Made by a program: the position numbers and the translations under genes. A DNA stretch of 51,496 nucleotides from a virus (lineage: Duplodnaviria > Caudoviricetes): IMG/VR virus record IMGVR_UViG_3300021178_000015, positions 1-51,496 of that record, one strand, 5' to 3'. Below the pieces are notes generated by a model. The model ran no database searches. It saw only the letters and a list, made by a program, of their open reading frames with translations, and was not told the origin of the DNA. Shown one piece after another: positions 4,472-48,078 of the stretch. Every line of letters starts with the position of its first letter. Position 1 is the stretch's first letter.

Positions 4472-5050
4472 ATGAAGGAATTTCTTTCCAAACTGAAGGG
4501 TGCAACGCTCGCGATTGCGGCCGTTGTTGCTCTGTTGCTGCCCACCGATGGCGCCTTGGCGCAGACCGTGGTTGCGCTTCCGAACAACGTTATCATCAAC
4601 AGCGTTCTGGACATGGGCAACGGCCCCATGGAACTGAAGGTGCTGCAAGGCAACGGCTGGCTGTTCACCGCGCAGGGTGCCGGCGTCGGCTCCACGTCGG
4701 GTTCGTCCACCACGTTGACGCTCACGGCGACGGCAGCCGCGGACCCGCCATGTGTGGGTTGCGAAATTTCCGGCGCCGGCATTACGTCGGGCACCACCGT
4801 GGCAGCGTTCAACGGCACGACCACCATTACGCTCTCCGCGGCGATGACGGTTGCGGCGTCCACTCCGCTTGCCTGGGGCATGGCTTGTCCGACCTTCGCT
4901 TCGTTGCTGGGCCTGCCTCCGGTGCCGAACGTCGGCTTGCCATCTAGCGGCGGGCCTGACTTGCCGCTGTACACGCAAGCGCGTGTCTGCCTTCTGGCGC
5001 AGAATGGCCCCGGTCTTACCGTACTTCCGTTCCCGATCGGCGCACATTAA
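4472..5050 (+). CDS. Signal-peptide-bearing virion appendage-like protein
   Basis: MKEFLSKLKGATLAIAAVVALLLPTDGALA-Q; ISGAGITSGTTV...TTITLS tail-like beta repeat; 4 Cys. Confidence 0.7.
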   Translation: MKEFLSKLKGATLAIAAVVALLLPTDGALAQTVVALPNNVIINSVLDMGNGPMELKVLQGNGWLFTAQGAGVGSTSGSSTTLTLTATAAADPPCVGCEISGAGITSGTTVAAFNGTTTITLSAAMTVAASTPLAWGMACPTFASLLGLPPVPNVGLPSSGGPDLPLYTQARVCLLAQNGPGLTVLPFPIGAH

Positions 5051-5062
5051 CAGCGCCTAGCA

Positions 5063-5092
5063 GCCGGGGGCTTCGGCTCCCGGTTTCACTTT
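5063..5092 (+). terminator. Probable intrinsic terminator hairpin
   Basis: agccgggggc-ttcg-gctcccggtt followed by a short T-rich tract. Confidence 0.5.
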
Positions 5093-5111
5093 CAACCGGA
5101 GGATTGCTCCC

Positions 5112-5405
5112 ATGCGTAAATATTTTGCTTGCGCGTTCGCGATGTCGCTTGCTTTCTCCGCTCCGATCGCGGCTGCGGCGCAGACTTCCAAGCAGGGCAT
5201 GCCAACCATTCATGTTCCGTACAGCGGCGCGGTTAAGGTGCCCTTCATGACGACTGCGCAGCTCCCGATTTGCGACAGCTTCAACATCGGCATCATCCTA
5301 GGCGTCACCGATGCAACGACGCCGACGTACAACGGAGCCGTGACCGGCGGCAGCAACGTTGCCGTGCTTGTCGTGTGCAACGGCGCTGCTTGGAAATCGA
5401 TGTAG
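5112..5405 (+). CDS. Small signal-peptide-bearing protein with tail-fibre-type domain
   Basis: MRKYFACAFAMSLAFSAPIAAAA-Q; TTAQLPIC...VTDA...GG...VVCNGAAW resembles phage fibre C-terminal modules. Confidence 0.7.
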   Translation: MRKYFACAFAMSLAFSAPIAAAAQTSKQGMPTIHVPYSGAVKVPFMTTAQLPICDSFNIGIILGVTDATTPTYNGAVTGGSNVAVLVVCNGAAWKSM

Positions 5406-5420
5406 CAAGGAGTTGCCGCC

Positions 5421-5738
5421 GTGGCTATGAACCCCATCGTCTCCATTCCGCGCGACTATCAGCAGTGGTCGAACAACGTCATTCCGGTTATCGACTTTCA
5501 GTGCAAAGCCGGTGTGTACACGCTCACGGCGACGGCCTCGGTGTGGGGTACGGCGCAGCTTCAGCGCATGATTGCGGACCCGGTGTTGGGTGCGGAGTAC
5601 ATTAACATCGGTGCTTCGATTGTCGCCAACGGATTGTACGAGTACCACTTGGCGGCGGGGCAGTATCATTTGGCCGTTGCGGGTACGACGGGCTTTTCCG
5701 GCGTGTTCGAGCGTACCGGTTCGTGGGCAGGAAGGTAG
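5421..5738 (+). CDS. Hypothetical virion protein
   Basis: AAGGAG RBS, 105 aa, beta-rich. Confidence 0.7.
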   Translation: MAMNPIVSIPRDYQQWSNNVIPVIDFQCKAGVYTLTATASVWGTAQLQRMIADPVLGAEYINIGASIVANGLYEYHLAAGQYHLAVAGTTGFSGVFERTGSWAGR

Positions 5739-5741
5739 CGC

Positions 5742-6038
5742 ATGCGCGTAACGATTATTCGAGACGACAATTTCGTGAGCGTGGATGGCGAGGGCTACAA
5801 GGTCGATTGCAGTTCGCTGCCCGCCGACTTTCACGCGTTGCAGTGGACTGGTGCCACGGGCGAAGTTGAGTACCGCATGACGGTGTGTACGCATTGCGGT
5901 GCGCGTTCGAAGAAGCCCAACGCGACGATTGCCGATACGACGGAGTTCAAGCCGCAACTTGATGGCTGGCATGCTGCAAAGTTGGCGGCCGATGCAAAAA
6001 AGAAGGCCAAAGCCGATGCTGCCAGACTTGAAGGTTAG
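5742..6038 (+). CDS. Tail-fibre-associated hypothetical protein
   Basis: RVTIIRDD...VSVDG...FHALQW...GEVEY pattern seen beside phage tail fibre genes. Confidence 0.6.
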   Translation: MRVTIIRDDNFVSVDGEGYKVDCSSLPADFHALQWTGATGEVEYRMTVCTHCGARSKKPNATIADTTEFKPQLDGWHAAKLAADAKKKAKADAARLEG

Positions 6039-6327
6039 GTGCCCCGCGACCGGCTTTACGCGCGCGTGCCGTGAAATCTTGGCGGAGTGCGAATGTCCGA
6101 AATTCGTCAGTATCAAGGGTACGGACCCGCAAACCGGCGCGATCGTTGATCGGCACGGTTGCGTTGACAGCTTCCTGCCGCTACTGTTGATTGAAAACGC
6201 CCAGGTATCGCGGCAGATCGGCGCGGCTATCGAGAGTTTCCGCAATGAAGTTGTGAAGGCAAACGATAGCGCAATGGAGGAACGACAGCGGCTTTTCAGC
6301 GCGGCGCGGCAGCAACTTTTAGGGTAA
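6016..6327 (+). CDS. Conserved tail-fibre-associated hypothetical protein
   Basis: CP...GTDPQTG...GC...LPLLLIENAQVSRQIGAAIESFRNEVVKAN pattern common in phages. Confidence 0.7.
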   Translation: MLPDLKVRCPATGFTRACREILAECECPKFVSIKGTDPQTGAIVDRHGCVDSFLPLLLIENAQVSRQIGAAIESFRNEVVKANDSAMEERQRLFSAARQQLLG

Positions 6328-6333
6328 AGCGTC

Positions 6334-6615
6334 ATGCAAATCTATAACCGGGGATCAACAGTGCATCACCACCTTGACACGCTTAACTGGCCGGTAGCCG
6401 GCGTTACGGTGGTGTCTTGGCCGTGGTTGAACGAGCTTTGGGCCTACGTTCCGGCCCCCACGGCGGTCTACATGATTGTGTCGGCGGCCTTTATGTTGTT
6501 CCAGATGTCTGATAAGCTGGGGCTGCTGCATCGTTTCAAGCGCCATGCGCCGGAAACGCCAGAAGATCGGCGGGCAACTTCCATCATCAAGGAACTGCCG
6601 GACGCCCCACAATAG
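6334..6615 (+). CDS. Membrane protein, possible holin
   Basis: 93 aa, two hydrophobic segments and a charged C-terminus. Confidence 0.45.
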   Translation: MQIYNRGSTVHHHLDTLNWPVAGVTVVSWPWLNELWAYVPAPTAVYMIVSAAFMLFQMSDKLGLLHRFKRHAPETPEDRRATSIIKELPDAPQ

Positions 6616-6626
6616 GAGCACTGAGC

Positions 6627-6956
6627 ATGAGCGTTTTTAAGGGTCACAAGTCCGGCTTTAACCCCAAGGGCAGTAACGCATGCGTGCCCAACGAAATGGG
6701 GCCGCCAACGACGAAGTTCGGCGGGCGCCCTGCGGTGCCGGCCGGGCCGTTGAAGCGCTACCCGGGCGCCGCTGCGGACATTTCGAACGGCAATCGCCGG
6801 CTTGCCAAGGCCAGCCACGGCGAAGGCGAAGGCAGCGGCGTGACCTTCAGTGGCGCCCCCAGCGGCTTCAAAAACACGGGCGGCGTGTCCAGCGGTCGCA
6901 AACCCGGCGGCATGGATGGCAAGCGCAGCAAGGCCATGTCGTACAATAAGAAGTGA
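6627..6956 (+). CDS. Basic Gly/Lys-rich hypothetical protein
   Basis: AGGAG RBS; low-complexity basic 109 aa. Confidence 0.7.
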   Translation: MSVFKGHKSGFNPKGSNACVPNEMGPPTTKFGGRPAVPAGPLKRYPGAAADISNGNRRLAKASHGEGEGSGVTFSGAPSGFKNTGGVSSGRKPGGMDGKRSKAMSYNKK

Positions 6957-6968
6957 TGGAGCCGTACA

Positions 6969-7382
6969 ATGTTCTATCGCCCGGGCGGTACGGCTAAGGC
7001 GCCCAACCGGCAGTACGATACGGTCTATGCCGACACCATCGGCCTAGCCACCGATTGGCTGCCGATCAATAAGGGCGATACGATCGCGGTCAACATCGCA
7101 CGCGCGTCCATTGTGTTTGCGAGCGCTGCGCAAAGCGCCGTGACCGCAACGCCGGTTGCGCCGGAAGCAACCGTGGTCATGGAATTGGCCGTTTTGGGCG
7201 GCGCAGCTCCGATCAAGTTCCCGATCGATAACTGGCAGAACGTGGTGGTTGCCACGTCACGCCGGGCACACCGCGCGGGCTTTGTGCGGCTCAAGATTTT
7301 GAATATCAACAACGGCGACGGTACGGGCCTCTTGATGGGCCTGCAAATCAGCCGTACGGGTGAAAGCGGAGCGGTGACCTAG
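6969..7382 (+). CDS. Hypothetical virion protein
   Basis: GGAG RBS, 137 aa, beta-rich. Confidence 0.7.
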   Translation: MFYRPGGTAKAPNRQYDTVYADTIGLATDWLPINKGDTIAVNIARASIVFASAAQSAVTATPVAPEATVVMELAVLGGAAPIKFPIDNWQNVVVATSRRAHRAGFVRLKILNINNGDGTGLLMGLQISRTGESGAVT

Positions 7383-8011
7383 TGGGCGGTTTCGATAACG
7401 GGTCAATTCAAGGCGGCGTCTTTTTTCAGGCCAAGCAATTCGGCCCGATATTGCGTGGCGCCGGGCCGCCCGTGCCGCAAGCCGGTGTCGTTGGTGACAC
7501 CTATATCGATACGCAAACATGGTTTCTGTACGCTAAACGGAGCGCGGATAATACGGACCCTTGGGGCCGTTATCTGTTTCAGGTGCCGGTGACGTATCGT
7601 ACGGCGCTGAAGTGGTTTAGCGCGTACGCGCCAGACGATAGCGTCGGCATCTCGGGCGACTATTGCTTGCTTTGGGGTGGTTGGTCCAATTACGGCATGC
7701 AACCGTCGATCTACGGGCCCAAGCAAGCTATTTCGTGGCCTGAAAACGGCAACGGTGGTACCGTTTCAATTGCAGTTGCGGGCGCCGGAACTGTGTTGCC
7801 AGTCGGCTTGCTGGACGAAGGCGCACCGTTGACGTACAGCACGTCAACGCAGTTGATCGCGGTCGGCCTAGTGGACGAATTTATCCTCGCCGTGCCGGTC
7901 ACTGCGAATGCCGGCGACCCGGTAACGCAGCAAGGCCTGCAATCGGGTCCGGCTGCCGTCGCTGTCGTGCTCAACCCGTTGTACACCGCCCAGGACGGTC
8001 ACGCATTGTGA
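7382..8011 (+). CDS. Tail-associated protein, paralog family A copy 1
   Basis: Shares GFDNG-QGGVFFQ-KQFG...TDPWG-YLFQVP...GDYCL-WGG-NYG-QPSI-GPK...LNPLYTA with the next gene. Confidence 0.75.
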   Translation: MGGFDNGSIQGGVFFQAKQFGPILRGAGPPVPQAGVVGDTYIDTQTWFLYAKRSADNTDPWGRYLFQVPVTYRTALKWFSAYAPDDSVGISGDYCLLWGGWSNYGMQPSIYGPKQAISWPENGNGGTVSIAVAGAGTVLPVGLLDEGAPLTYSTSTQLIAVGLVDEFILAVPVTANAGDPVTQQGLQSGPAAVAVVLNPLYTAQDGHAL

Positions 8012-8436
8012 GCGGATTTGACAACGGAACACTTCAAGGCGGCGTTTTCTTCCAGTCGAAACAATTCGGCTCGATCATTCGCGGCCTGGGCCCGCCGGGA
8101 CCGGCTGCCGGCGTGCAAGGCGATTTGTATATCGACGTGTTGTCGTGGTTCTTGTACACCAAGCGCGCGATTGACGATACGGACCCTTGGGGCCACTATC
8201 TGTTTCAAGTACCAGCGACGTATCAAGCGCAGCTTAAGTGGTTCGGCGCTTCTATTCCGACGAATGACGTAGGCATAAACGGCGACTACTGTCTGGTCTG
8301 GGGTGGATATCCGAACTACGGTCTGCAACCTTCGATCCTGGGACCGAAGGCCGCGGGCGCGTGGCCGGGCTCGCCGAATGCCGTCGCCGTGACGTTGAAC
8401 CCGTTGTACACTGCGGAAGATACCCATGGTATTTAA
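8008..8436 (+). CDS. Tail-associated protein, paralog family A copy 2
   Basis: Clear paralog of 7382-8011 lacking an internal insert; GTGA coupling. Confidence 0.75.
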   Translation: MSGFDNGTLQGGVFFQSKQFGSIIRGLGPPGPAAGVQGDLYIDVLSWFLYTKRAIDDTDPWGHYLFQVPATYQAQLKWFGASIPTNDVGINGDYCLVWGGYPNYGLQPSILGPKAAGAWPGSPNAVAVTLNPLYTAEDTHGI

Positions 8437-9580
8437 CCCAGCGACAGATTTCCTCGGTCTTTGGCGTAATATTGCCGGCGTCGTTTCCAAGGTGGAAATG
8501 CCGGGGCTTGACTATGTGGTTGCCGCGCTCGCGCGTACGGGCGTAATTAATCTGTCCGTCTCCGCCACGGCGCCAGTTGCCAATCAATCGACCACCGCAT
8601 GGCTGCAAACGGCCGTTCCGAGCAATTCCGCCGAAGGCGTACTGTTCCTTTGGAACCCCGCTGCGAGTGCCTACGCGCCCGCTACGGCTGCGTTGCTTCT
8701 CGACATGCTCCAAGCGTCGGCCGGACAAAACGGGGTGTCATGGTGGACTTCAATTGGCGGACCGCCGATCAACACAATCGGCAATAACGGTGATTTTGCG
8801 ATACGTACAGACGCGCCGAATGGCGTGTACGGACCCAAAGTGCTGGGCGCGTGGCCTACTACGCCGATACCGGGCACTGCCGACGTACTCACAAGCACGT
8901 CGCTTGACAACACATTCGGCACCGCGGAAGGCGACCTTATTTATCGCGACGCGGCAGTGTGGAAAGCGCTTGGCATCGGAGCGGTGAATACGATTTTGAC
9001 ACCAGTCGCGGGCATACCGGCGTGGGAGACGCTTTCCGTGCTGCTTGACGCTGTTTTTGGTAGCGTGCAAGGCGATGTTTTGTACCGCGATGTTGCGTCA
9101 TGGAAGGCACTCGCGCCCGGTGCGGCCGGATTAGTCCTGACTGCCGGCGGTTTGGCCGGTAACCCGTCGTGGGCTGCGGCACCATCTACGTTCCCGTCTG
9201 GAACAACGATGCTATTCCAGCAAACGGCGGCGCCCGTAGGGTGGACGAAACAAACGGCGCTCAATGACTACGGCTTGCGCGTCGTATCGGGTGCGGTCGG
9301 GACGACGCCCGGGACTGCATTTAGTACGGTGTTCGCGCAAACCTCAGTTGGAAATACGACGCTGAATGCTTCACAAATTCCACCACACGTACATCCGATT
9401 TCTGGTATCTTGTTTAACACGACAGACAGCGGTACTGTTTCGCCGATCGGATATTACGGCAATTCCGGCGGCGCGGGCGGCGTCTCTACGGATAATAACA
9501 CGGGCGGTGGCGGTGCGCACACCCATTCGGTCAGCTTGGCACTGTCGTACGTAGACTGCATTATCGCGAGCAAGAATTGA
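8426..9580 (+). CDS. Tail fibre with family-B N-terminal anchor and collar-type tip
   Basis: ATDFL...MPGLDYVVAALAR N-terminus; two GD-YRD-WKAL repeats; FPSGTTMLFQQTAAPVGWTK...QIPPHVH...HTH collar/His tip. Confidence 0.8.
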   Translation: MVFNPATDFLGLWRNIAGVVSKVEMPGLDYVVAALARTGVINLSVSATAPVANQSTTAWLQTAVPSNSAEGVLFLWNPAASAYAPATAALLLDMLQASAGQNGVSWWTSIGGPPINTIGNNGDFAIRTDAPNGVYGPKVLGAWPTTPIPGTADVLTSTSLDNTFGTAEGDLIYRDAAVWKALGIGAVNTILTPVAGIPAWETLSVLLDAVFGSVQGDVLYRDVASWKALAPGAAGLVLTAGGLAGNPSWAAAPSTFPSGTTMLFQQTAAPVGWTKQTALNDYGLRVVSGAVGTTPGTAFSTVFAQTSVGNTTLNASQIPPHVHPISGILFNTTDSGTVSPIGYYGNSGGAGGVSTDNNTGGGGAHTHSVSLALSYVDCIIASKN

Positions 9581-10170
9581 TGGCGTACGATTCGACGACT
9601 GACTATCTTGCACTGCTCCGGTTACTGCCCGGCGGCGTCCGTACGGAACGGATGCCCGGTCTTGACTATATCGTGAACGCGCTCGCCCGCGCCGGCATGT
9701 TTCAGATTGCAATCGGGCAGACCGCGCCAGTTATCAATCAGTCTAAGACGGCATGGTTCAAACCTGCCATGCCGTCTTGGGCCTTCGAAGGCACGCTGTT
9801 TCTTTGGAATGCGGTGACTGTCGAGTACGAACCTGCAACGCCCGCATTGTGGGCTGCGATCTTTTCGAGTGCGTCGTCGCAAACGGTAGTACAGGACGTC
9901 ACGAGTGCGGGCCCCGTGCTTGTAGAAGTGAACGCCGGTATCGTCCGCGTGCAGAATGTTGGGGCTGCGGTTACCCTGCTTATGCCGCCATCCGCAACTA
10001 TGCTGGGTCCGGTTTTGATTTCTGACTGGGCCAATCATGCAGGCTCGCACAACATCCAGATTAATTTGTCAGGCGGTGACGTGCTCCCGCTCGCCGCAAC
10101 TTCATGGACGATAGCAGCCGATGCGGGCAGCGTGTTTTTACGACCCGTACCGGGAGGATTTGCGCTATGA
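9580..10170 (+). CDS. Tail adaptor, paralog family B copy 2
   Basis: TDYLALLR...MPGLDYIVNALARAG...EGTLFLWN...PATPALW; no Cys. Confidence 0.7.
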   Translation: MAYDSTTDYLALLRLLPGGVRTERMPGLDYIVNALARAGMFQIAIGQTAPVINQSKTAWFKPAMPSWAFEGTLFLWNAVTVEYEPATPALWAAIFSSASSQTVVQDVTSAGPVLVEVNAGIVRVQNVGAAVTLLMPPSATMLGPVLISDWANHAGSHNIQINLSGGDVLPLAATSWTIAADAGSVFLRPVPGGFAL

Positions 10171-11297
10171 AAAAGTTACTGGCGCTGATTTTTGCATTTG
10201 CGTTCGGTACGACCCTGCATGCTCAAAATCCGGGTACAGTTACGAGCCATGCTTTTGCAATTGGCAAGGGCCCTACTGTATCGGGCTACACGTCGCTGCT
10301 TTGCGGCAGTGGACAGCTCCCGATCGGAAGCGCGACGGACCCGGTTTGCCAGACAATCACGGGGGACGGCGCGATTTCGGCTGCCGGCGTACTCACACTT
10401 GCAACCGTCAACGCCAATGTCGGTACCTTTGGTTCTGCAACTCAGTGCATCACGACAACGCAAAACGCCAAAGGCCTGACAACGGCTATTTCGGCTGCCA
10501 ATTGCACGCCTCCGATCGGCAACGTTACCGGGCTTGGTACCGGCGTGGCGACGGCGCTGGGTTTAAACGTCGGTACGGCCGGAGCCCCCGTTATCAATGG
10601 CGGTGCGCTTGGCACGCCTTCGTCGGGCGTAGGCACCAATTTAACTGGGGTGCCGATAGGGAGCGGCGTTAGCGGACTGGGAACAGGCGTCGCAGCGGCG
10701 CTCGGTACGGCTGTAGGTTCTGCCGGCTCCCCGGTTGTCAACGGCGGTGCGCTTGGCACGCCTTCAAGTGGCGTCGGTACGAACTTGACCGCGTTAAACG
10801 CTTCTAATCTTGCTAGCGGTACGGTTCCGATAGCTCGGCAGCCTGTACAACCGAACTTCCGGGTTCATTTGGTCGGTAATCAGTCGATTAGCGCCAGTAC
10901 GTACACTAAAGTGTTGTACGATACCGTTGACATAGACAGTAATTCTTTTTGGAGTGCGACCAACCACAATTATCTGCCTACAGTCGCCGGCACGTATCAA
11001 TTTTGCGCGTCCGCATACGTAGGTGCCACCTACTCGCTTGGAAGTCTGATTATCGTACAGTTTTCTAAGAACGGTTTGCACGGGACTGGCACCGAGCAAG
11101 GCAGCGGCGTAACTTTGACGGGGGGCGCCAATACCTTTGAAGGCGTGACCGCAGCGTGTACGGTTGCCACCATGAACGGGTCAACCGACACTATGGAAAT
11201 CGATATCGACACCAACGGAACGACGCCAGTTATCACCGGCTTTACTACGGCCTCGGTCATCGCAAATTACTTCACTGGCACATGGATCAGTCCGTAA
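10167..11297 (+). CDS. Signal-peptide-bearing tail fibre with 48-aa repeats and C-terminal C1q-like domain
   Basis: GGAGG RBS, ATGA coupling; MKKLLALIFAFAFGTTLHA-Q; GLGTGVATAL...NGGALGTPSSGVGTNLT twice (144-bp period); FRVHL...KVLYDTVDID...YLPTVAGTYQF. Confidence 0.75.
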   Translation: MKKLLALIFAFAFGTTLHAQNPGTVTSHAFAIGKGPTVSGYTSLLCGSGQLPIGSATDPVCQTITGDGAISAAGVLTLATVNANVGTFGSATQCITTTQNAKGLTTAISAANCTPPIGNVTGLGTGVATALGLNVGTAGAPVINGGALGTPSSGVGTNLTGVPIGSGVSGLGTGVAAALGTAVGSAGSPVVNGGALGTPSSGVGTNLTALNASNLASGTVPIARQPVQPNFRVHLVGNQSISASTYTKVLYDTVDIDSNSFWSATNHNYLPTVAGTYQFCASAYVGATYSLGSLIIVQFSKNGLHGTGTEQGSGVTLTGGANTFEGVTAACTVATMNGSTDTMEIDIDTNGTTPVITGFTTASVIANYFTGTWISP

Positions 11298-11298
11298 C

Positions 11299-11922
11299 AT
11301 GACGTACAGCCCCGCAACTGATTTTCTTGCGCTGATCCGCCAGACGGCCGCAGGCGTTGAAGTCACGCAGATGCCGGGACTGGATTACGTTGTTGCTGCG
11401 CTCGCGCGTGCGGGCCTGTTTCAACTTTCCGTTGGGCAGGCACCGCCGACAGCCAATCAGTCCACGACCGTATGGTTGAAGCCGTCCATACCGTCATGGG
11501 TTGCCGAAGGCGCCGTGTTTTTGTGGAACGCAGGCGCGGGCCAATACCAACCTGCTACGCCCGCATTGTGGAGCGCGTTGCTTGCAGGCGCTGGAGCAAC
11601 AAACGGCTATGCTTTTCAATCGGTAAGCGCCGCGTCGGCGGCCATCGTCGCCGGTACGACGCTGCTGGCTGTACAACGCGCTGCGCCATCGGCAACGGCG
11701 TTGCTGCTTCCAGCGCTCGCCGCACAGCGACTTAGCGGGGGTCCGCTTCGGATTGTGGATTGGTCCACGACTGTTGCAGCCCATACGATCACAATTACGA
11801 CACCAGATGGTTCCACAATCATGCGACAACCATCTTGGCAACTGCTCTCTACTGCCGTACAGCTAGCCGGGGTTTTGCTGTATCCCTCGCCTGATTTAAA
11901 TGGATGGGTCATCGCGCCATGA
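11299..11922 (+). CDS. Tail adaptor, paralog family B copy 3
   Basis: PATDFLALIR...MPGLDYVVAALARAG...EGAVFLWN...PATPALW; no Cys. Confidence 0.7.
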   Translation: MTYSPATDFLALIRQTAAGVEVTQMPGLDYVVAALARAGLFQLSVGQAPPTANQSTTVWLKPSIPSWVAEGAVFLWNAGAGQYQPATPALWSALLAGAGATNGYAFQSVSAASAAIVAGTTLLAVQRAAPSATALLLPALAAQRLSGGPLRIVDWSTTVAAHTITITTPDGSTIMRQPSWQLLSTAVQLAGVLLYPSPDLNGWVIAP

Positions 11923-13508
11923 AAATTTTTTACGTTCTTGCCCTCGGTGCTTTGTTATGTTCGCCTGCCTCCGCGCAATGGCAGACGCCGAAGCACTCCG
12001 TACCGATCGGGCAAGGAGCAGCTATCAGCGGTTTTGGTAACGCAGCGCCGGGGACTGCCGGACAGCCTTTTTTGAGCAATGGGCCGAATGCGGACCCGTC
12101 GTTTCAAACGTCTCCGTTTGCTAGCTTGACGCTTCCCAACGTTTTCACTCATGACCAGATTTTCGGGTCTGGCCGTCCGTGGGTGGACCCGACTGCGTAC
12201 GGCGCTGTGTGTGACGGCATGACCGATAGCGCGCCCGCTTTCCAGCAAGCCGACACAGTTGCGGGGTTGACGGGCGGGGCCATATATGTGCCCCCGTGCA
12301 GCTCATCCTACTGCATCAAAACCGGGCCCGTGATCCTCAATAGTTTGGGGGAAGTGCTCTTTTCCACAAGCCGGTCCACCACTATATCGGCATGCGGTAC
12401 GGACAATTCAGTTGTAGAGTTGTCGCAGCCGTACCAAAGTGTTTACAATTTAACGATCTACGGCAAAGGCGCCCCGACAGACACGGGAACGGTTGGTGCT
12501 ATTACTCCCGCGGTCTTAATCAGGGGCACCGGAGGCGGGTGCAACGATTGTTTTCTGGATAGTTTAAACATCTTTGGCGGTTCGAACTGCCTGTCAATCA
12601 GCCCGCCGGCCGTCAATGGCGAGTTTTTCGTGTGGCGCAGTTACATTTCGTACTGTCATGGCTCACTTGTATACGCACAAAATGCCGGCGGTTGGTTCAA
12701 TCGCATGAAAATAGATCAGGCATGGCCGGAAGGACCGCCCGCAATCGGAACTGCGCTAAACGCGTGGGCTGCGACGACTTCCTATGCGCGGGGGGCCGTA
12801 GTCACTTCCGGCGGGTATATGATTCAGTGCTCCCAAGCGGGCACTAGCGGGGGTAGCGCACCCACGTTGAAGAATTACGGGCAGACAGTCACGGACGGCT
12901 CGGCTCAGTGGATACTTGCGGGTCTTGTCGGCAGCGCTGCTCTGCAACTTGACACCGGAACGTCAGAAATTTACGGTACGGACGTAGACATGACGGGCGC
13001 CACTACGTACGGCGTTCAAATGTCGAACACGCTATCGGGCGCGCCCCCGCAGTTTTTTCGCTGCGTGGACTGCATTTCCAGTCAAACAGCAAGCAACGCG
13101 TACTACTTTCAAAACGGCAACGACGTCTATCTAACCAGCAACATCGTGGCCGGAGGCTGGACGCCAAATTCACCAGCGGTGATTTTTAACGGCAATTTCT
13201 CCGGACAGGCAACCATAACTGGCGGTAAGTACGGCATAGGTTCGGGGTTTGGCGTGATCTTCGCCACCGGTACGAACTATACAATCCAGAACACGATTGT
13301 CGGAGCGACCGTACAGGGCATTGCAATCCAGGTTAGCAACGTAATCGCGCGCGGCAACGTAATCAGTTCGAGCGGCGGCACGGGGGTCAACATCAACAAT
13401 TCTCTAAGTCGCGTCATCGTTGACGGCAACATTTGCCCTAACGGAGCTTCACCCTGCGCCAACTCGCCAACTGGCATGACAAATTCTTCGATCATTAACA
13501 ATTTTTAG
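11919..13508 (+). CDS. Signal-peptide-bearing tailspike (pectate-lyase-like beta-helix depolymerase)
   Basis: MKIFYVLALGALLCSPASA-Q; VDPTAYGAVCDGMTDSAPAFQQA beta-helix start; WAATTSYARG...QCSQAGTSG...P carbohydrate-binding insert; Asn-rich coils. Confidence 0.8.
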   Translation: MKIFYVLALGALLCSPASAQWQTPKHSVPIGQGAAISGFGNAAPGTAGQPFLSNGPNADPSFQTSPFASLTLPNVFTHDQIFGSGRPWVDPTAYGAVCDGMTDSAPAFQQADTVAGLTGGAIYVPPCSSSYCIKTGPVILNSLGEVLFSTSRSTTISACGTDNSVVELSQPYQSVYNLTIYGKGAPTDTGTVGAITPAVLIRGTGGGCNDCFLDSLNIFGGSNCLSISPPAVNGEFFVWRSYISYCHGSLVYAQNAGGWFNRMKIDQAWPEGPPAIGTALNAWAATTSYARGAVVTSGGYMIQCSQAGTSGGSAPTLKNYGQTVTDGSAQWILAGLVGSAALQLDTGTSEIYGTDVDMTGATTYGVQMSNTLSGAPPQFFRCVDCISSQTASNAYYFQNGNDVYLTSNIVAGGWTPNSPAVIFNGNFSGQATITGGKYGIGSGFGVIFATGTNYTIQNTIVGATVQGIAIQVSNVIARGNVISSSGGTGVNINNSLSRVIVDGNICPNGASPCANSPTGMTNSSIINNF

Positions 13509-13516
13509 GCGTCCAC

Positions 13517-14038
13517 ATGGTTAGCTTTTACGATACCGTCATTCGCAATTCGAAGGCGTTCCGCAGCGACGCGGTGTGCAAAGACGTGGCGTTGCTAGAG
13601 CCCGGCACGCGCGCCGCGGTGCTAGCGTTGGTTGCGGAGGCCAACGCAGACGGTATTGATTTGCGCGTGCTAGAAACGTACAGAAGCCAGACCCGGCAAA
13701 GCTATCTCTTCACGAAGCACGCTACCCAGCTCCGCGTCGTCGGTTGTCACGGCTACGGCGTTGCGGCCGATTTCGGAGTGTTCGTCAAGGGCGTCTATCA
13801 GGAAAAGAACGGTCCGTACGTCTTCTTGCGCGTACTGGCGCGCAAGCACGGGCTTATAAGCGGACAGGATTGGGGTCACGCAAAAGAAGGCAGCTTCGTC
13901 GATAGCGGGCATGTGCAACGTGTTCCGGTGTGGCGCCAATCGGCGCTGTTCGGCAGTTCGTGGTACCCGCCGGTCGATTACGACCCGTACAAAGACAGCA
14001 CAGCGAACCACCAAACCGACGTGGTAGCTACGCTTTAG
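13517..14038 (+). CDS. Endolysin, M15-family zinc peptidase
   Basis: ETYRSQTRQ, CHGYGVAAD and DWG...DSGHVQ zinc-peptidase motifs. Confidence 0.8.
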   Translation: MVSFYDTVIRNSKAFRSDAVCKDVALLEPGTRAAVLALVAEANADGIDLRVLETYRSQTRQSYLFTKHATQLRVVGCHGYGVAADFGVFVKGVYQEKNGPYVFLRVLARKHGLISGQDWGHAKEGSFVDSGHVQRVPVWRQSALFGSSWYPPVDYDPYKDSTANHQTDVVATL

Positions 14039-15008: not shown

Positions 15009-16592
15009 GTGACCGCATATCCTTGGGAACAGCCCCCGCAATCTTCGTATCCGTGGCAGCAGTCACAGCCTGCGGAGGCGGAGCGCAAGGCAGCGATGCG
15101 GGCCAAGCTCCGCGATTTTGATTTCTATCGCGAGCGGTTTTTGCGTATTCGTCCGCGTGCCGGCGGCGAGCGCATCCCCTTTATTTTGAACAACGCCCAG
15201 CGCGTCCTGCATGCCCGGCTAGAAGAAGAAAAGAAGCGGTTCGGCATGATACGCGCGCTCGTGCCCAAAGCGCGGCGCATGGGCGTGAGTACGTATATCG
15301 GCGGACGCAACTTCCATCAAATCGGAACCATGTTCGGTCGGCGGGCCCAAGTGGTGGCGCACCGTGGAGACAGCGCAGCTAACCTGCATCGTGAAATTAA
15401 AGAATTTGCTAACAGCTTGCCGGGCGCCGTACAGCCGTCGATTGGTGCCACCAACTCTTATGAAGTGATATTTGACGTCCTTAAGTCGCTGTACAAAGTG
15501 GCGTCGGCTGAAGGTGGCGACATCGGCCGTTCGGATGACTTCCATAATCTGCATCTGTCGGAAGCCGCGTTCTTTGATAACACGGAAGACCTTTCGTCTG
15601 GTTTGTTGCAAACCGTACAGGACTTGCCCGGGACGGAAATCATAGAAGAGAGCACGGGCAACGGCCAGTCCGGCATGTTCTATAACCAATGCGAGGAAGC
15701 CGCGCGGCAAGGCAACAAAGGTCCGTGGCGCATCCACTTCCTACCGTGGCCCGTCATGCCGGAGTACCGTCAAACCGTGCCAGTGGGCTGGAAAGCGCCC
15801 CAGGATTTTGAAGAGTACGCGCGCATGCATGGCGTAGACCGGGAGCAGTTATACTGGTTTTGGACCAAAAACTATACGATAGCCGTTATGAATGGCGGGC
15901 AACCGGAGAAAATCCACCGGCTCACGCGTCAAGAGTACCCGGCCATCTATAGCGAATGTTTCATGGCCGACAGCACGCTTGATTTCTTTCCGGCGTCTGT
16001 CGTGTCCGCGGCGATGGTGCGCAAGCCGAACCCGTCCGCCGGGGCGCTGAAGCTGCTTTGCGTAGACCCTGCCGGCGACGGGCAGGACAAGCCATTTGTC
16101 TGCGATCGGCAGGGCTCCGCGATCGGCGCCAAGGTTTGGGGCGAGCTGACAAGCCGGGACTACAACGTGCAAGCTGACTGGCTTGTGGCTACGTTTAAAC
16201 GTTTCGATATGGATGCCATCCTTATCGACGTAACCGGGACCGGCAAAGGGCTGCTAGACGCCGTACGGCTGCGCATGCGCGCGTACGGTCCTGAAAAGGT
16301 GGTTGCGGTCAACTTTGCATGGGGTGCTTTGAATGACACACTGTACGGCAACCGGCGCGCGGAACTGCACGACAAGTTCCAGCGTTGGTTGCAAAGTGAC
16401 GTATCCATGCCGAACGACAAGATGTTGCAGGACGAATGCGCCGCTTATAAATGGGGCGTGGGTGGTTGCCGTCGCGATGAAAAAGCGCGGCTGTTCATGA
16501 CGCCAAAAGAAAAAATCAAGAAGGAATTGAAGCCTACGCGTTCGCCCGACCGCTTGGACGCTTGCGTCGTTTCGATGGCGATGGAAGCTTGA
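15009..16592 (+). CDS. Terminase large subunit
   Basis: LNNAQ adenine motif, KARRMGVST Walker A, LHLSEAAF Walker B, ESTGNG, VDPAG and SPDRLDA nuclease motifs. Confidence 0.93.
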   Translation: MTAYPWEQPPQSSYPWQQSQPAEAERKAAMRAKLRDFDFYRERFLRIRPRAGGERIPFILNNAQRVLHARLEEEKKRFGMIRALVPKARRMGVSTYIGGRNFHQIGTMFGRRAQVVAHRGDSAANLHREIKEFANSLPGAVQPSIGATNSYEVIFDVLKSLYKVASAEGGDIGRSDDFHNLHLSEAAFFDNTEDLSSGLLQTVQDLPGTEIIEESTGNGQSGMFYNQCEEAARQGNKGPWRIHFLPWPVMPEYRQTVPVGWKAPQDFEEYARMHGVDREQLYWFWTKNYTIAVMNGGQPEKIHRLTRQEYPAIYSECFMADSTLDFFPASVVSAAMVRKPNPSAGALKLLCVDPAGDGQDKPFVCDRQGSAIGAKVWGELTSRDYNVQADWLVATFKRFDMDAILIDVTGTGKGLLDAVRLRMRAYGPEKVVAVNFAWGALNDTLYGNRRAELHDKFQRWLQSDVSMPNDKMLQDECAAYKWGVGGCRRDEKARLFMTPKEKIKKELKPTRSPDRLDACVVSMAMEA

Positions 16593-17704: not shown

Positions 17705-18376
17705 TTACAGGCCGTTGAAGTGCTTCTGAAGCCCGACGCGGAAGGTGGTGTCGTCAGGTAGGCCTTGCTGAGCCGGCGAGTTGTAGAGCTGCGCATAGGT
17801 GGACCAGCCCGCCGAAACGACATAGTCGATTTCCGCGCCCACGGCCATGACCGAGAGGCCATGACGTTGCACACCGCCAAAAATGAAAGCCGGCGTGGAC
17901 GCAGCCAAAAAGTTAGCGGACACCAAGTTGAGAAAGGGATTTTGGGACGCCGCCGGGGCCTGAGTTGCCGACGACGGGAAGAAGTTGTAGCCGAGCTTGA
18001 CAAACTCGGTTCCGACGAAGTTACCGCCGGCCGGCTTCACGCCCGCGGGCGAAAACTCATAGCCCCCGGTCAATTCGATACCGGCGAGCCACTGGCCGGT
18101 CCAAAGCTGGTAGCCGCCGCCGGCAAAGATATCGAGCCCGTCTGAAAACGCACTGTTGACGCCGTTCGCAAGAATGTTCGGAGTGCCGACGTTGTTCTGA
18201 GCCCCCATGCCGAAGCTCGCGAACCAGCCGGAACAATTGCCGGCGGACTGGCACGGCTGTACGGCGGGAACGGCCGGGGCCTTGACGAAGGTCGCGTGCG
18301 TCTGCAAATCGGCAGCAACAGCGGAAGATGCCAGCGCAGCAAGCGCGACGCCGGCAAGAAGTGCAGATTTGAACAT
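17705..18376 (-). CDS. Outer-membrane beta-barrel protein, Rhizobiales Omp25/RopB-like
   Basis: Signal peptide then AADL...VKAP...CSGWF...GGGYQLW...WLAGIE...FRVGLQKHF, the typical layout of Rhizobiales outer-membrane immunogenic proteins. Confidence 0.75.
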   Translation of the reverse strand: MFKSALLAGVALAALASSAVAADLQTHATFVKAPAVPAVQPCQSAGNCSGWFASFGMGAQNNVGTPNILANGVNSAFSDGLDIFAGGGYQLWTGQWLAGIELTGGYEFSPAGVKPAGGNFVGTEFVKLGYNFFPSSATQAPAASQNPFLNLVSANFLAASTPAFIFGGVQRHGLSVMAVGAEIDYVVSAGWSTYAQLYNSPAQQGLPDDTTFRVGLQKHFNGL

Positions 18377-22448: not shown

Positions 22449-22560
22449 GTCAAGGCCTTACCGTACACTAATTTGACGAAATCCGCAGCATCAGCTATTT
22501 TGTACCAATTCGCACGCGCCGGCCTGCAACGCCGGGGAACCATTGAAAGGGGTTATTCGC

Positions 22561-23493
22561 ATGCAGGTTATCGACAGGTCACTTCAATCGAGCCAGTATT
22601 GGCCGGGGTTGTTTGCGCTGTTCGGCATGGACTATGAACGGCTTTCGCCGATCTACAAGCAATTCTACGATCGCAAGCCGTCCGAAAAGGCGTTCGAAGA
22701 GTTCATGACGGAGCGTGCCGGCCTGGGCCTCGCCGTACAGCAGCCGGAACTAGAGCCGGTGCAGTTCGACGTTCCGAACGAAGGTTACCGCACCCAGGTC
22801 ACCCACGCGTCGTACGGGCTCGCCGTGGCGATTTCGCGCGAAGCCAAAGACGACAACCTATACGAAGACGTCGGCGGCCGGATGATGAAAGAGCTGGCGT
22901 TCTCGGCGCGGCAGACCGAAGAGTACATTGCGCATGCTCCGCTGCAAGTTGCGTTCGATGCCGTCAACGGTCTGCGTGCGGACGGCGTGCCGGTTTGCTC
23001 GCCTTCGCATCCGACCGCGGTCGGCCTCCAGTCCAATCAGCTCATTTCCGCCAACGCGTCGGAATTGGCTTTCGAGAACGCGGTTATCCAGATCGCGTAC
23101 ACCCGCAACGGCCGCGGCTTCGTCGTCAACGTGCTACCCAAGCGCGTCATCACGTCAACCGAGAACGGGCCAGAAATCCGGCGCATCCTGGGTTCGCCTT
23201 TGCAGTGGAATGCACAGACGAACAATATCAACGTGCTGCGTTCGACCGGCGCGCTTCCGGAAATCGTCGAGACGCCCTACTTGGTCGATAAGGACAACTA
23301 TTTCGTCCAGACTTCTGAGCAGGACAAAGACAACGGGCAGGGCTTCACCTTCTGGGAACGTTCCTCGCTCGAAACTCGCGAAGACAGCAATTGGAGCAAT
23401 CAGGCATCCCTGATCGCGATTTGGTTCCGCTGTGCCGCGTCTGTGGTCGATTTCCGAACCGTGTACGGTTCGGCCGGTTCCGACAACCTGTAA
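22561..23493 (+). CDS. Major capsid protein
   Basis: PGLFALFGMDY...SEKAFEE...YGLAVAISREAKDDNLY...ADGVPVCSPSHP...YGSAG pattern of the gpT/HTVC010P-type capsid. Confidence 0.9.
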   Translation: MQVIDRSLQSSQYWPGLFALFGMDYERLSPIYKQFYDRKPSEKAFEEFMTERAGLGLAVQQPELEPVQFDVPNEGYRTQVTHASYGLAVAISREAKDDNLYEDVGGRMMKELAFSARQTEEYIAHAPLQVAFDAVNGLRADGVPVCSPSHPTAVGLQSNQLISANASELAFENAVIQIAYTRNGRGFVVNVLPKRVITSTENGPEIRRILGSPLQWNAQTNNINVLRSTGALPEIVETPYLVDKDNYFVQTSEQDKDNGQGFTFWERSSLETREDSNWSNQASLIAIWFRCAASVVDFRTVYGSAGSDNL

Positions 23494-26244: not shown

Positions 26245-27720
26245 ATGCCAGCAATCAATGTAATGGGGTCTTTTCAAGACCCTTTAAATCTGGATCAGGG
26301 CGCCGGCAAGCTCGTGAACGTGCGCGTTGTCCCGCGCGAAATGAAGGAGGGACGCGTCGCCAAGGTGCGTTTCCTCGGTTCGCCGGGGCTTACCACCGTA
26401 TGCCAGCCCACCGCGCAACCTTGTATCGCGCTCTGCCACGCGCTCGATACGATATGGAGCGGTCACGGTGACGGTTCGATATACTACGGCATTGAAACCG
26501 GAGTACCCGTGTTGGCGGGCTTCGTTGCCGTACAAGCCGGCCAGCCGGTAATTCGGTTTGCGGAAGATCGCACGGCGCTTGCCATCGCATCAAATAAGAA
26601 CATTCTCAATCCGTTGCTGTTTGGTACGGGTTACGTTGGTGTGAAGACCCCCACGGCCGGCATAACCAACGCCGGCTTTGACACGTCGATTGATTTTGAT
26701 CCGTCCACCGTGGCAGAGTTGGACAACATGACGATATGGTCCGGCGCGTCAAATGTGTACGCCAATCAAGATAGTAAGATGTACAACTCGAACCCGCTCG
26801 CGCCGGGCACGGTGCAGCCGAATAGCTTCGCCACGAAAGAAGCCCGCGCCGATCGCGTGGTTGACTTGGCGATTTCCGGCCGCGTCATGTGGCCGCTGGG
26901 TTCCCGGTCACTGGAGCAATGGTACGATAGCGGCAACGGCGCCGATTTCCCGTATCAGGCGTTCCCCAATTCACTCAATTCGGTAGGCATCGCATCGCGG
27001 CTCACGTTGGCGGTGCTCCGCGACCTTATCATGTTCGTGGGCACCAACCGTCGTGTGTGGCTTTGCTCGGGTCAATCCGGGGCCCCGGTGTCGCCGACCT
27101 GGGTTGACAGTCTGCTGCAAGAGTTGACGCTTACGCAGTTAGGCCAACTCACGGCCTATGCCTACGCACACGCGGAAAGTGATTTCTATGTACTCACGCT
27201 CCCTGGGTCTTGGACCATCGAGCTGTCCGGCGCGACGGGTTCGTGGTCTTACCGTCAGTCACCCGGGCGGCTTGACCATGCCAGCCGATGCGCTACGGAA
27301 CACGATGGGGGTTCGACTTACGTCGGTCTGGATACGGGCCACATATGTACGGCTGATATGAACAATCAGACCGAGCCCGCCGGTACGATTTCCCGAATGA
27401 TTGTGACCCCATGGGTTGGCGACGAAGAATACCGCAGCACGTATGCTACGGTTGATGCAACGTCATCCATGGGTCCGCAAGCCGGCACCTTTCAGCTCGA
27501 TTGGTCGGAAACTGCTGATGTCACCGAAGGCGGCGTCGTGGTGTCGAACCGTACGTGGCGCGGAGTACGACAAATTCAGATGCCGACGCCGGGCGCGCAA
27601 CGCGCGATCGGACGTGATTTTGGTACGGGCCGGCGCCGTCAATTCCGATTGCAGTACAGCGGCACGCAAGCGCCCTTCACAATTGACGAAATGTTTATCA
27701 ATACGATCAAAGGGACTTAA
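26245..27720 (+). CDS. Tail hub / packaged-DNA stabilization protein (P22 gp10-like)
   Basis: 491 aa; PGL N-terminal motif, FATKEARAD, LGSRSLEQW, FYVLTLP and DFGTGRRRQFRL patterns. Confidence 0.8.
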   Translation: MPAINVMGSFQDPLNLDQGAGKLVNVRVVPREMKEGRVAKVRFLGSPGLTTVCQPTAQPCIALCHALDTIWSGHGDGSIYYGIETGVPVLAGFVAVQAGQPVIRFAEDRTALAIASNKNILNPLLFGTGYVGVKTPTAGITNAGFDTSIDFDPSTVAELDNMTIWSGASNVYANQDSKMYNSNPLAPGTVQPNSFATKEARADRVVDLAISGRVMWPLGSRSLEQWYDSGNGADFPYQAFPNSLNSVGIASRLTLAVLRDLIMFVGTNRRVWLCSGQSGAPVSPTWVDSLLQELTLTQLGQLTAYAYAHAESDFYVLTLPGSWTIELSGATGSWSYRQSPGRLDHASRCATEHDGGSTYVGLDTGHICTADMNNQTEPAGTISRMIVTPWVGDEEYRSTYATVDATSSMGPQAGTFQLDWSETADVTEGGVVVSNRTWRGVRQIQMPTPGAQRAIGRDFGTGRRRQFRLQYSGTQAPFTIDEMFINTIKGT

Positions 27721-47090: not shown

Positions 47091-47321
47091 ATGCGATTAT
47101 TCTGGCTACTTGTGGCGCTGGCGTGCGCCGTCGTTTACTTCGGCCCGTTCGGCGGATTGGCATCGGCCCAGAATATGAGCGGCATGGGCCGCATCGCGGA
47201 CCCGCCCCCAGCGCCGTATACGCGCGCCGACTTCCAACGTGACTGCATCGCCATGGCGCCCAGGAGCGAACCGGCGCGGCGCGAGTGGATTACGAAGACC
47301 TGCCGCAAGGAAGCGCCCTGA
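47091..47321 (+). CDS. Small exported protein
   Basis: GGAG RBS; hydrophobic N-terminus ending ASA-Q; two Cys in the mature part. Confidence 0.6.
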   Translation: MRLFWLLVALACAVVYFGPFGGLASAQNMSGMGRIADPPPAPYTRADFQRDCIAMAPRSEPARREWITKTCRKEAP

Positions 47322-47778
47322 TGAATGACCGGCCGTACGCCCAACGCTGGGAGATCGACGGCCAGCGCGTCAAGGTCATGTACGCGGTCGGCACCGCCAT
47401 TACGGAGGACATCGCCGAAGCGCTGCTTTGGCGCAAGTGGTACCCGTCGCTTGGGCTACGGTGGGTTGTTATCGCGGTGTCGGCATGACCAACGAAATCT
47501 GGGTCCAACTTCATACGGCAACGTTGGTTTACGAAGGTACCGGTAACCTTGAATGGGTTGCCGTGCCGGAAGTGCAGGTTGATACGTACAAGGCACTAAT
47601 ACGCGATATTGGGCTGCGGCTCGTTTGCGTCGTACGGAGCAAGAAGTAATGAACGACTTCGGCGGGGGCATGCAGGCATTCGGGTACTTGGAACACTGGG
47701 CTGCGCTGTCAGTGTTTGCGATTGGTGGCGTTGCGGTCACCGTGCTTTGCGCCGTAGTGCTTTGGAGGAACCTGCACA

Positions 47779-48078
47779 ATGGATAGCAAGTACTGGGCCG
47801 GTTTGATGGTTATCGCGGGTGCTTGGCTCATTTGGGTTGTACTCATGAGCGTCACGCTACGTCGCCGTCGCTACCCGGCCGTGCATAAAATGGTGTTCAC
47901 GCTTCTAGACGACGCGTACGCGAATGGCTACTTCGAACCTGGGGAGCACAGCCACGGCATGACCGCAGACGAACTGGCATACGATATGACGCTCTACGCG
48001 CCGGACTGCGAAAATCTGCGACCGGAGTTTCTAACTCCGTACGTACGCGCATGGATGCAACAAAAGGGGCTCGAATAA
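47779..48078 (+). CDS. Membrane-anchored hypothetical protein
   Basis: GGAGG RBS; N-terminal TM followed by RRRR. Confidence 0.6.
   Translation: MDSKYWAGLMVIAGAWLIWVVLMSVTLRRRRYPAVHKMVFTLLDDAYANGYFEPGEHSHGMTADELAYDMTLYAPDCENLRPEFLTPYVRAWMQQKGLE

Follow-up and report, generated by a model that had tools for sequence, protein, structure and literature searches.

Assembly of tailed phages is, in the textbook account, wholly cytoplasmic. Here, we describe a tail block in which part of the fibres may take another route. It lies in a near-complete phage genome of 51.5 kb (IMG/VR record IMGVR_UViG_3300021178_000015; 51,496 bases, estimated to be 98% complete), and "the window" below means this whole stretch of DNA. 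Two adaptor genes (9580 and 11299; genes are named by their first position) each directly precede a gene for a putative fibre (10167) or tailspike-like enzyme (11919) with a Sec-type signal peptide (leader), and we propose, with a probability of roughly 0.55, that each pair is a split fibre with a distal half that is exported and docks onto a virion-borne adaptor at lysis.

The order of parts in the adaptors, an anchor followed by an XD-type beta domain, is likewise described for TSP4-N of phage CBA120 (PDB 7REJ), with TSP1-3, and for gp66 of phage G7C, with gp63.1; there, as here, receptor binding falls to a separate protein with a conserved N-terminal part for attachment (PMC8825819; this and all other papers are cited from excerpts). 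Several paralogous anchors in one phage are a further likeness. Unlike TSP4 and gp10, the adaptor of our phage has an XD1-like domain only, XD2 and XD3 being absent, and unlike in TSP4, this domain is C-terminal, with its distal face free and no receptor-binding body on the adaptor. Furthermore, the partner carries a Sec leader and paired cysteines here, whereas signal peptides of the TSPs go unmentioned in the excerpts of PMC8825819, the comparison being one by description.

A cultured podovirus, Pseudanabaena phage Pam5 (ON014757.1), is syntenic with a group of 42-kb relatives that have the C-domain of adaptor 1 (PMC9382816). Its tail spike gp18 aligns with the adaptor over residues 11-173 (29% identity, E 8e-11) but differs in being one chain of 536 amino acids that joins adaptor and distal parts and has neither a leader nor a cysteine. 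Its tail fiber gp16 is 45% identical (E 2e-39) to the collar fibre of the 42-kb group; the latter has a leader and gp16 has none. Judged by these alignments, Pam5 carries the unsplit, cytoplasmic form of the spike.

For leader-bearing proteins in virions, Cellulophaga phage phi18:3 (NC_021794.1) may serve as a precedent. Its proteins gp085, gp086, and gp087 are large, have leader-like N-termini with small-x-small before Gln, and are annotated in the record as virion structural or tail proteins from tandem mass spectrometry proteomics. They are likened to the proteins of our phage by leader pattern and annotation, not by sequence relation; the host belongs to the Bacteroidota, and cysteines are few (0, 1, and 3). 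We found no printed statement on their leaders. The endolysins Lys44 of fOg44 and Lyz of P1 are late phage proteins that pass through the host Sec system before lysis and are active only once the holin fires (PMC6116005), but they are lysis enzymes, not virion parts, and the endolysin of our phage is leaderless. WceF of Pantoea stewartii is a trimeric, tailspike-like beta-helix enzyme exported from the cytoplasm; it differs in that its gene belongs to a bacterial exopolysaccharide cluster, that it uses a twin-arginine translocation (Tat) signal, which carries folded proteins, and that it has no adaptor partner according to the excerpts (PMC7949094). A full-text literature search, mostly at the level of titles and abstracts, returned nothing on signal peptides of tail fibres or tailspikes; the papers on phage signal peptides (PMC3556154, PMC13001222, PMC6116005, PMC8878798) concern, in the excerpts, lysis proteins only (endolysins, spanins).

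Leader-bearing proteins of the tail block

The original prediction, made from the sequence alone, named four tail-block proteins with signal peptides that end in Ala before Gln, and the leaders of 4472, 5112, 10167, and 11919 indeed all end in small-x-Ala before Gln (Table 1). A heuristic that looks for a basic n-region, an uncharged hydrophobic run, and small residues at −3 and −1 picks out six of the 73 called genes (the four of the tail block and those at 17705 and 47091), compared to 4 of 266 other six-frame open reading frames (ORFs). At −3, the 10167 leader has Leu, and most of its homologs have Ala. None of the four leaders contains the RR of a Tat signal, and a lipobox scan flagged none of the four proteins, the +1 residue being Gln in all of them. 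Could the starts simply be mis-called, with the true ones downstream of the hydrophobic segments? The general difficulty of start calling in DNA of 58% GC is the only point in favor of this artefact, which we regard as very improbable: a Shine-Dalgarno sequence or an ATGA stop/start overlap is found at all four starts, of 16 distinct related loci, 11 show the ATGA overlap as well, and the leader frame stays hydrophobic in 29 of 29 aligned homologs despite sequence change.

The homologs of the fibre encoded by 10167 (fibre 1) number more than 4,000, its shaft repeat being common in tail fibres. The module directly behind its leader (N-module) lies within the first 70 residues in 73 of the 120 homologs listed, and all 73 begin with a basic n-region and have 10 or more uncharged residues in a row; the listed homologs without the N-module begin with ordinary fibre N-termini. 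Among 29 aligned N-module fibres, the mean pairwise identity rises from 0.29 over leader residues 1-16 to 0.74 at the A-x-A-Q motif and is 0.66 for the mature start (residues 21-66), and A-x-A before Q is almost invariant across the varying leaders. Since the leader varies while the cleavage motif and the mature start stay conserved, this profile marks a cleaved signal peptide and not a structural helix. In a set of 286 proteins, 72 copies of the first half of the N-module (residues 20-66) were counted, with 8 more in a set of 114 longer proteins (659-2000 amino acids); all 80 start at residue ~20-26, directly behind a leader, and none is internal. Residues 67-118, its second half, are a motif of shafts in general, seen at 200 internal sites.

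The tailspike-like 11919 has 15 relatives. Four of them (P0012-P0015) combine an N-module of the 11919 type with four different distal domains, and all have hydrophobic, leader-like N-termini; P0002-P0005 and P0009 have leaders followed by other N-modules, and in P0006, P0008, and P0010 the same beta-helix follows a fibre N-terminus of the classic type, which has no leader. The two smaller proteins behave alike: homologs of 4472 keep the leader in four of four loci (L091, L093, L095, L096), with a different h-region and ALA before Q, and those of 5112 keep it in two loci (L091, L096), where its sequence differs. Leaders are kept in homologs of all four proteins and, by this comparison, are a selected, conserved feature and not a product of chance.

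The cysteines were counted in the same proteins. As had been claimed, the mature parts of 4472, 5112, 10167, and 11919 contain 4, 2, 6, and 13 cysteines, with one extra cysteine inside the leader of 5112 and one inside that of 11919, and the paralogs encoded upstream of 10167 and 11919, to which these genes are ATGA-coupled, have neither cysteines nor leaders. The predicted motif H-x3-IG-x-G-x3-SG[YF] stands in the mature N-termini of both 10167 and 11919, whose N-modules are weakly homologous (30% identity over 74 amino acids, E 6e-5). In 71 proteins, the first cysteine pair of the fibre N-module is complete in 66 and wholly absent from 5; a single cysteine was never seen. The number of cysteines is even in 26 of 29 mature fibres (median 6), and the median in 16 adaptors is 0.5. 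In the beta-helix alignment, cysteines occupy reference positions 132, 159, and 208 in 7/7 rows with a hydrophobic, leader-like N-terminus (the heuristic flags six of these; P0011 looks N-terminally truncated) and in 0/4 rows without one. These patterns fit disulfides and point toward oxidative folding. One sub-lineage has lost both cysteines of the first pair together (the fibres of L005 and L007; P0032, P0090, P0107, P0111, P0135).

These data also bear on the possibility that there is no productive export late in infection, the Sec system being saturated or shut down, or a leaderless isoform arising from an internal start, and that the fibres join the virions in the cytoplasm, with a retained leader or one that serves as a hydrophobic plug or membrane tether until lysis. 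Such a route would remove the problem of two compartments, the ATGA coupling would allow the completed adaptor to encounter the N-terminus of its partner during translation, and the evidence for export comes from sequence comparison. We nevertheless consider it improbable. A plug for a partner protein would be expected to keep its sequence, but the h-region is the least conserved part, and the nearly invariant part is the A-x-A before Q; cysteine pairs gained or lost jointly, and cysteines confined to leader-bearing beta-helices, argue for an oxidising compartment; and 10167 has no Met between the end of its leader and residue 120. A fusion protein made by read-through of the adaptor stop is ruled out by a second stop five codons on. 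Export and oxidative folding are strongly supported by the comparison as a whole, i.e., by the leader pattern, the A-x-A before Q, the cysteine pairs, and the leader-linked cysteines of the beta-helix.

Adaptor fold and pairing with leader-bearing fibres

The C-domain of adaptor 1 is modelled by AlphaFold2 (AF2) with a predicted local distance difference test (pLDDT) score of ~90. Its model superimposes on residues 79-174 of CBA120 TSP4-N with a VIA-align Z of 12.7 and a root-mean-square deviation of 2.2 Å over 94 of 96 residues (Foldseek E 6e-5; identity in the structural alignment 15%). Further matches are a baseplate protein of Klebsiella phage KP1 (Z 11.4), the tailspike of Acinetobacter phage Solidus (Z 10.8), and modules of CpaA and StcE; T4 5iv5 and gp9 (1qex) stand lower in the Foldseek list. 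The matching stretch of TSP4-N is its XD1 domain, which is common to T4 gp9 and gp10 (PMC8825819). Going by the model, the adaptor C-domain has this XD1 fold over its whole length; at the level of sequence, searches of Pfam and PHROGs gave no match that would relate adaptor 1 to XD1. The two adaptors are 38% identical over their whole length, and both have their N-terminal 100 residues in common with the one-piece fibre 8426, which has no leader, one cysteine, and no exported partner and is kept at 56-66% identity in L002, L003, L006, L008, and L009. For adaptor 1, the ATG at 9580 (TGATG overlap) is most likely the start, in preference to the TTG at 9577.

The model of 11919 has a mean pLDDT of 81.4 and a predicted template-modelling score of 0.80, with pLDDT above 90 over most of residues 90-480, and residues 86-529 fold in it as a right-handed beta-helix. 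Foldseek matches it to AlgE4 and PfbA as well as to the tailspikes of Dettilon, Sf6, phi29 (gp12), and CBA120. Its homologs P0002-P0011, 27-55% identical over alignment A1, carry a precomputed PF12708 mark; 11919 itself has no PF12708 match in Pfam at E up to 0.1. Sequence searches of the PDB with 11919, 8426, and 10167 and a tblastn search of the phage collection with 11919 gave no match. The ten tail-block proteins are almost blank in Pfam and PHROGs, apart from the match of residues 221-297 of fibre 1 to PHROG 15750; 4472 has no match in either, and an Atlas search with it returned no lead above noise.

The original prediction asked for conserved pairs of adaptor and signal-peptide protein in related phages, and such pairs were found. 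In 15 of 15 viral loci with a match that covers the N-terminus, and in a Bradyrhizobium prophage, the adaptor C-domain ends the gene directly upstream of the leader-bearing fibre. The adaptors of these loci carry at least four unrelated N-terminal anchors, and therefore the C-domain travels with the exported fibre and not with the tail type. The second pair, an adaptor of the 11299 type followed by a leader-bearing protein with the N-module of 11919, was seen in 6 of 6 loci; the distal parts there range from 435 to 1275 amino acids in length. The conserved adaptor C-domain and fibre N-module are, on this comparison, presumed to form the interface, the variable part being the distal domain.

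An adaptor profile matched 2,837 cluster representatives at E up to 0.001; among the best 150 matches, the domain is mostly C-terminal, in proteins of 130-250 amino acids. In P0221, P0228, and P0260, which have no leader, it continues into a fibre shaft, i.e., the fibre is unsplit, and two one-piece fibres, P0230 and P0239, begin with the N-terminal anchor of the 42-kb group. The adaptor role proposed earlier is thus supported: the fold is that of proteins for tailspike assembly, the pairing is conserved across phage types, and unsplit equivalents are leaderless. A scan of viral contigs with adaptor 2 as a single protein confirmed nothing.

Several observations were made beside these pairs. 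The 42-kb group has a second leader-bearing fibre type of ~340 amino acids, homologous to tail-collar proteins of cultured phages and located at about 6850-8100 in each of L004, L005, L007, L010, L011, L016-L019, and L082; its leader ends in small-x-A before AGT, and its homologs in a Bradyrhizobium prophage (L083) and in Pam5 (gp16) are both leaderless. The collar domain also led to tail proteins of Brucella phage Tb and Bradyrhizobium phage ppBeUSDA76-2, and these have no leaders. Large ORFs with leader-like N-termini stand beside the fibre genes of relatives in L016 (10478-11452), L017 (10200-11141), L019 (10726-11616; RR in the n-region, possibly Tat-type), L093 (4922-6070), L095 (1335-3923), and L090 (5068-end). 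Giant proteins with 4 to 15 tandem XD1-like domains also exist (P0143, 3238 amino acids; P0183, 4242 amino acids; P0179, P0200, P0203).

A proposed model of docking at lysis

In our model, each of the two receptor-binding appendages is split over two genes (9580/10167 and 11299/11919). The first gene would encode a cysteine-free adaptor that stays in the cytoplasm, is fixed to the tail by the anchor shared with fibre 8426, and leaves its C-terminal XD1-fold domain free as a socket. The distal half, encoded by the ATGA-coupled second gene, would be exported by its Sec signal peptide, cut by signal peptidase I after small-x-Ala, leaving an N-terminal Gln, and folded with disulfides in the oxidising periplasm. 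Once holin and endolysin mix the virions with the periplasmic contents, its N-module would plug into the socket. One chain cannot be in both compartments, and the model would therefore explain why the fibre is split. The proteins 4472 and 5112 would be exported too. Export of the leader-bearing proteins is well supported by the comparison of homologs; export itself, cleavage of the leader, docking, and its timing are what we infer.

Alternatively, the leader-bearing proteins might be exported and never become bound to a virion, acting instead on the envelope of the infected or lysogenic cell. They could be a depolymerase that cuts back nascent surface polysaccharide in the periplasm, a receptor mask or superinfection-exclusion factor, or an aid to release; in that case, each upstream family-B protein would be a short fibre complete in itself, with glycan bound by its XD1-fold domain. 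A Sec leader delivers a protein no further than the periplasm in a diderm host, the beta-helix is as like the secreted glycan enzymes AlgE4, PfbA, and RbmB as it is like tailspikes, and the XD1 fold is also found in the glycan-binding modules of the secreted proteases CpaA and StcE. In WceF, moreover, bacteria have an exported tailspike-like enzyme, though one that leaves via Tat (PMC7949094). What makes such an envelope function unlikely, if still the most serious alternative, is the pattern of conservation described above: adaptor C-domain and fibre N-module are conserved while the distal domains vary, as expected for an interface with exchangeable receptor binders and not for a pair of proteins that target a single receptor. 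Classic virion-binding N-termini precede the beta-helix in P0006, P0008, and P0010 and the shaft in P0018, and the unsplit homologs unite the adaptor and the distal part in one chain. A search of about 185,000 species genomes found fibre 1's N-module in only two, Rhodopseudomonas sp. B29 (L082) and a Bradyrhizobium sp. chromosome (L083), and an adaptor gene adjoins it in both. Lastly, the proteins have no lipobox, unlike the exclusion lipoproteins Llp and Cor. Action on the envelope fits the conserved and variable parts less well than docking does.

Several points weigh against docking at lysis. Released fibres must compete with dilution if they dock after lysis, and a scan for lipoboxes and transmembrane helices recognised no spanin or holin beside the endolysin. 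In TSP4, XD1 is a spacer and partner binding is ascribed to XD2 and XD3 (PMC8825819); the role of the adaptor XD1 domain as a socket is therefore only inferred. It could, by analogy, itself be a small receptor-binding domain, because the same fold occurs in the glycan-binding modules of CpaA and StcE. The N-modules are modelled at pLDDT below 50. A prediction of a 1:1 complex of the adaptor C-domain (A2 100-196) with the N-module (A3 20-118), run without controls, scored 0.29 (mark 0.32) and is not used either way. The cysteine pair is missing from the N-module of the 11919 type and from 5 of 71 modules of the fibre-1 type, and disulfides are therefore not essential to the module. The leader calls rest on a simple heuristic together with conservation. 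Finally, no cultured close relative is known, and tblastn searches of a collection of 50,697 phage records found neither the N-module nor adaptor 1; the one match of the N-module query, to a Pelagibacter phage, covers shaft residues 51-111.

Genome context and implications

The features discussed are collected in Table 1.

Table 1. Features of the window, with tail-block leaders given as nucleotide (nt) ranges; aa, amino acids
Feature	Position	Strand	Description
Giant protein, transglycosylase-bearing (putative)	1-2211 and 49668-51494 (contig ends)	+	both ORFs run off contig ends; 0 Cys
4472	4472-5050	+	192 aa, no assigned function; ATG behind GAGGA; 30-aa Sec-type leader (nt 4472-4561), GALA before Q; 4 mature Cys
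5112	5112-5405	+	97 aa, no assigned function; ATG behind GGAGGA; 23-aa Sec-type leader (nt 5112-5180), AAAA before Q; 2 mature Cys
Family A, first paralog	7382-8011	+	first 120 residues in common with second paralog
Family A, second paralog	8008-8436	+	
8426, one-piece family-B fibre	8426-9580	+	common N-terminal anchor (~100 aa), own 280-aa C-terminal part
9580, adaptor 1 (putative)	9580-10170	+	family-B N-terminal anchor, C-domain of predicted XD1 fold (residues 101-196); 0 Cys, no leader
10167, exported fibre 1 (putative)	10167-11297	+	376 aa; ATG behind GGGAGGA, ATGA overlap with adaptor-1 stop; 19-aa leader (nt 10167-10223), TLHA before Q; N-module (residues 20-66, Cys46/Cys61), common shaft repeats, variable C-terminal domain
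11299, adaptor 2 (putative)	11299-11922	+	paralog of adaptor 1; 0 Cys, no leader
11919, exported tailspike-like enzyme (putative)	11919-13508	+	529 aa; ATGA overlap with adaptor-2 stop; 19-aa leader (nt 11919-11975), PASA before Q; N-module (residues 20 to ~85), right-handed beta-helix (residues 86-529); 13 mature Cys
VanY-type endolysin	13517-14038		without leader
Large terminase subunit	15009-16592		~30% identity to podovirus terminases
Leader-bearing protein	17705-18376	−	223 aa; leader ends AVA before ADL; 2 Cys
Capsid protein	22543-23493		PF25209
Head-closure protein	26245-27720		
Small leader-bearing protein	47091-47321	+	ASA before Q; 3 Cys
Short protein	47625-47786	+	1 transmembrane helix
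Short protein	47779-48078	+	1 transmembrane helix

Because the N-module matched only Rhodopseudomonas sp. B29 and the Bradyrhizobium sp., the host is most likely a diderm alphaproteobacterium of the Bradyrhizobium/Rhodopseudomonas family. The ORFs at the two contig ends, the first with a Gly-rich beginning and a transglycosylase match (phrog_4067), may be one giant internal virion protein that was cut where the contig was linearised. The two family-A paralogs have no family match in Pfam or PHROGs; all close relatives have both genes, immediately before the family-B genes. The small leader-bearing protein at 47091 and the two short proteins downstream of it may form a lysis or holin cassette (47091-48078). 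The product of the minus-strand gene at 17705, with only a sub-threshold DUF7155 match in Pfam and none in PHROGs, is presumably akin to a small outer-membrane beta-barrel protein of Rhizobiales.

Beyond this phage, we put forward, as a tentative generalization with slightly less than an even chance of being right, that tailed phages of several bacterial phyla use a two-compartment assembly, in which fibres are split at the XD1 socket and the distal half is exported by Sec, oxidised by Dsb, trimmed to an N-terminal Gln/pyroGlu, and docked onto finished, fibre-less particles in the short interval after the holin fires and before the outer membrane ruptures. With the split forms of this phage and its relatives on one side and unsplit forms such as that of Pam5 on the other, the question can be tested directly. 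If the generalization holds, the Sec system, signal peptidase, and Dsb of the host would count among the host factors of infectivity, robustness in soil would be explained by fibres with stabilising disulfides, and annotation that dismisses leader-bearing ORFs as non-structural would miss determinants of host range. The cassette of adaptor and exported fibre would be a natural plug-and-socket unit for retargeting phages, in which a swap of host range needs the exported gene only, and it should be possible to complement fibre-less particles with periplasmic fibres in vitro.

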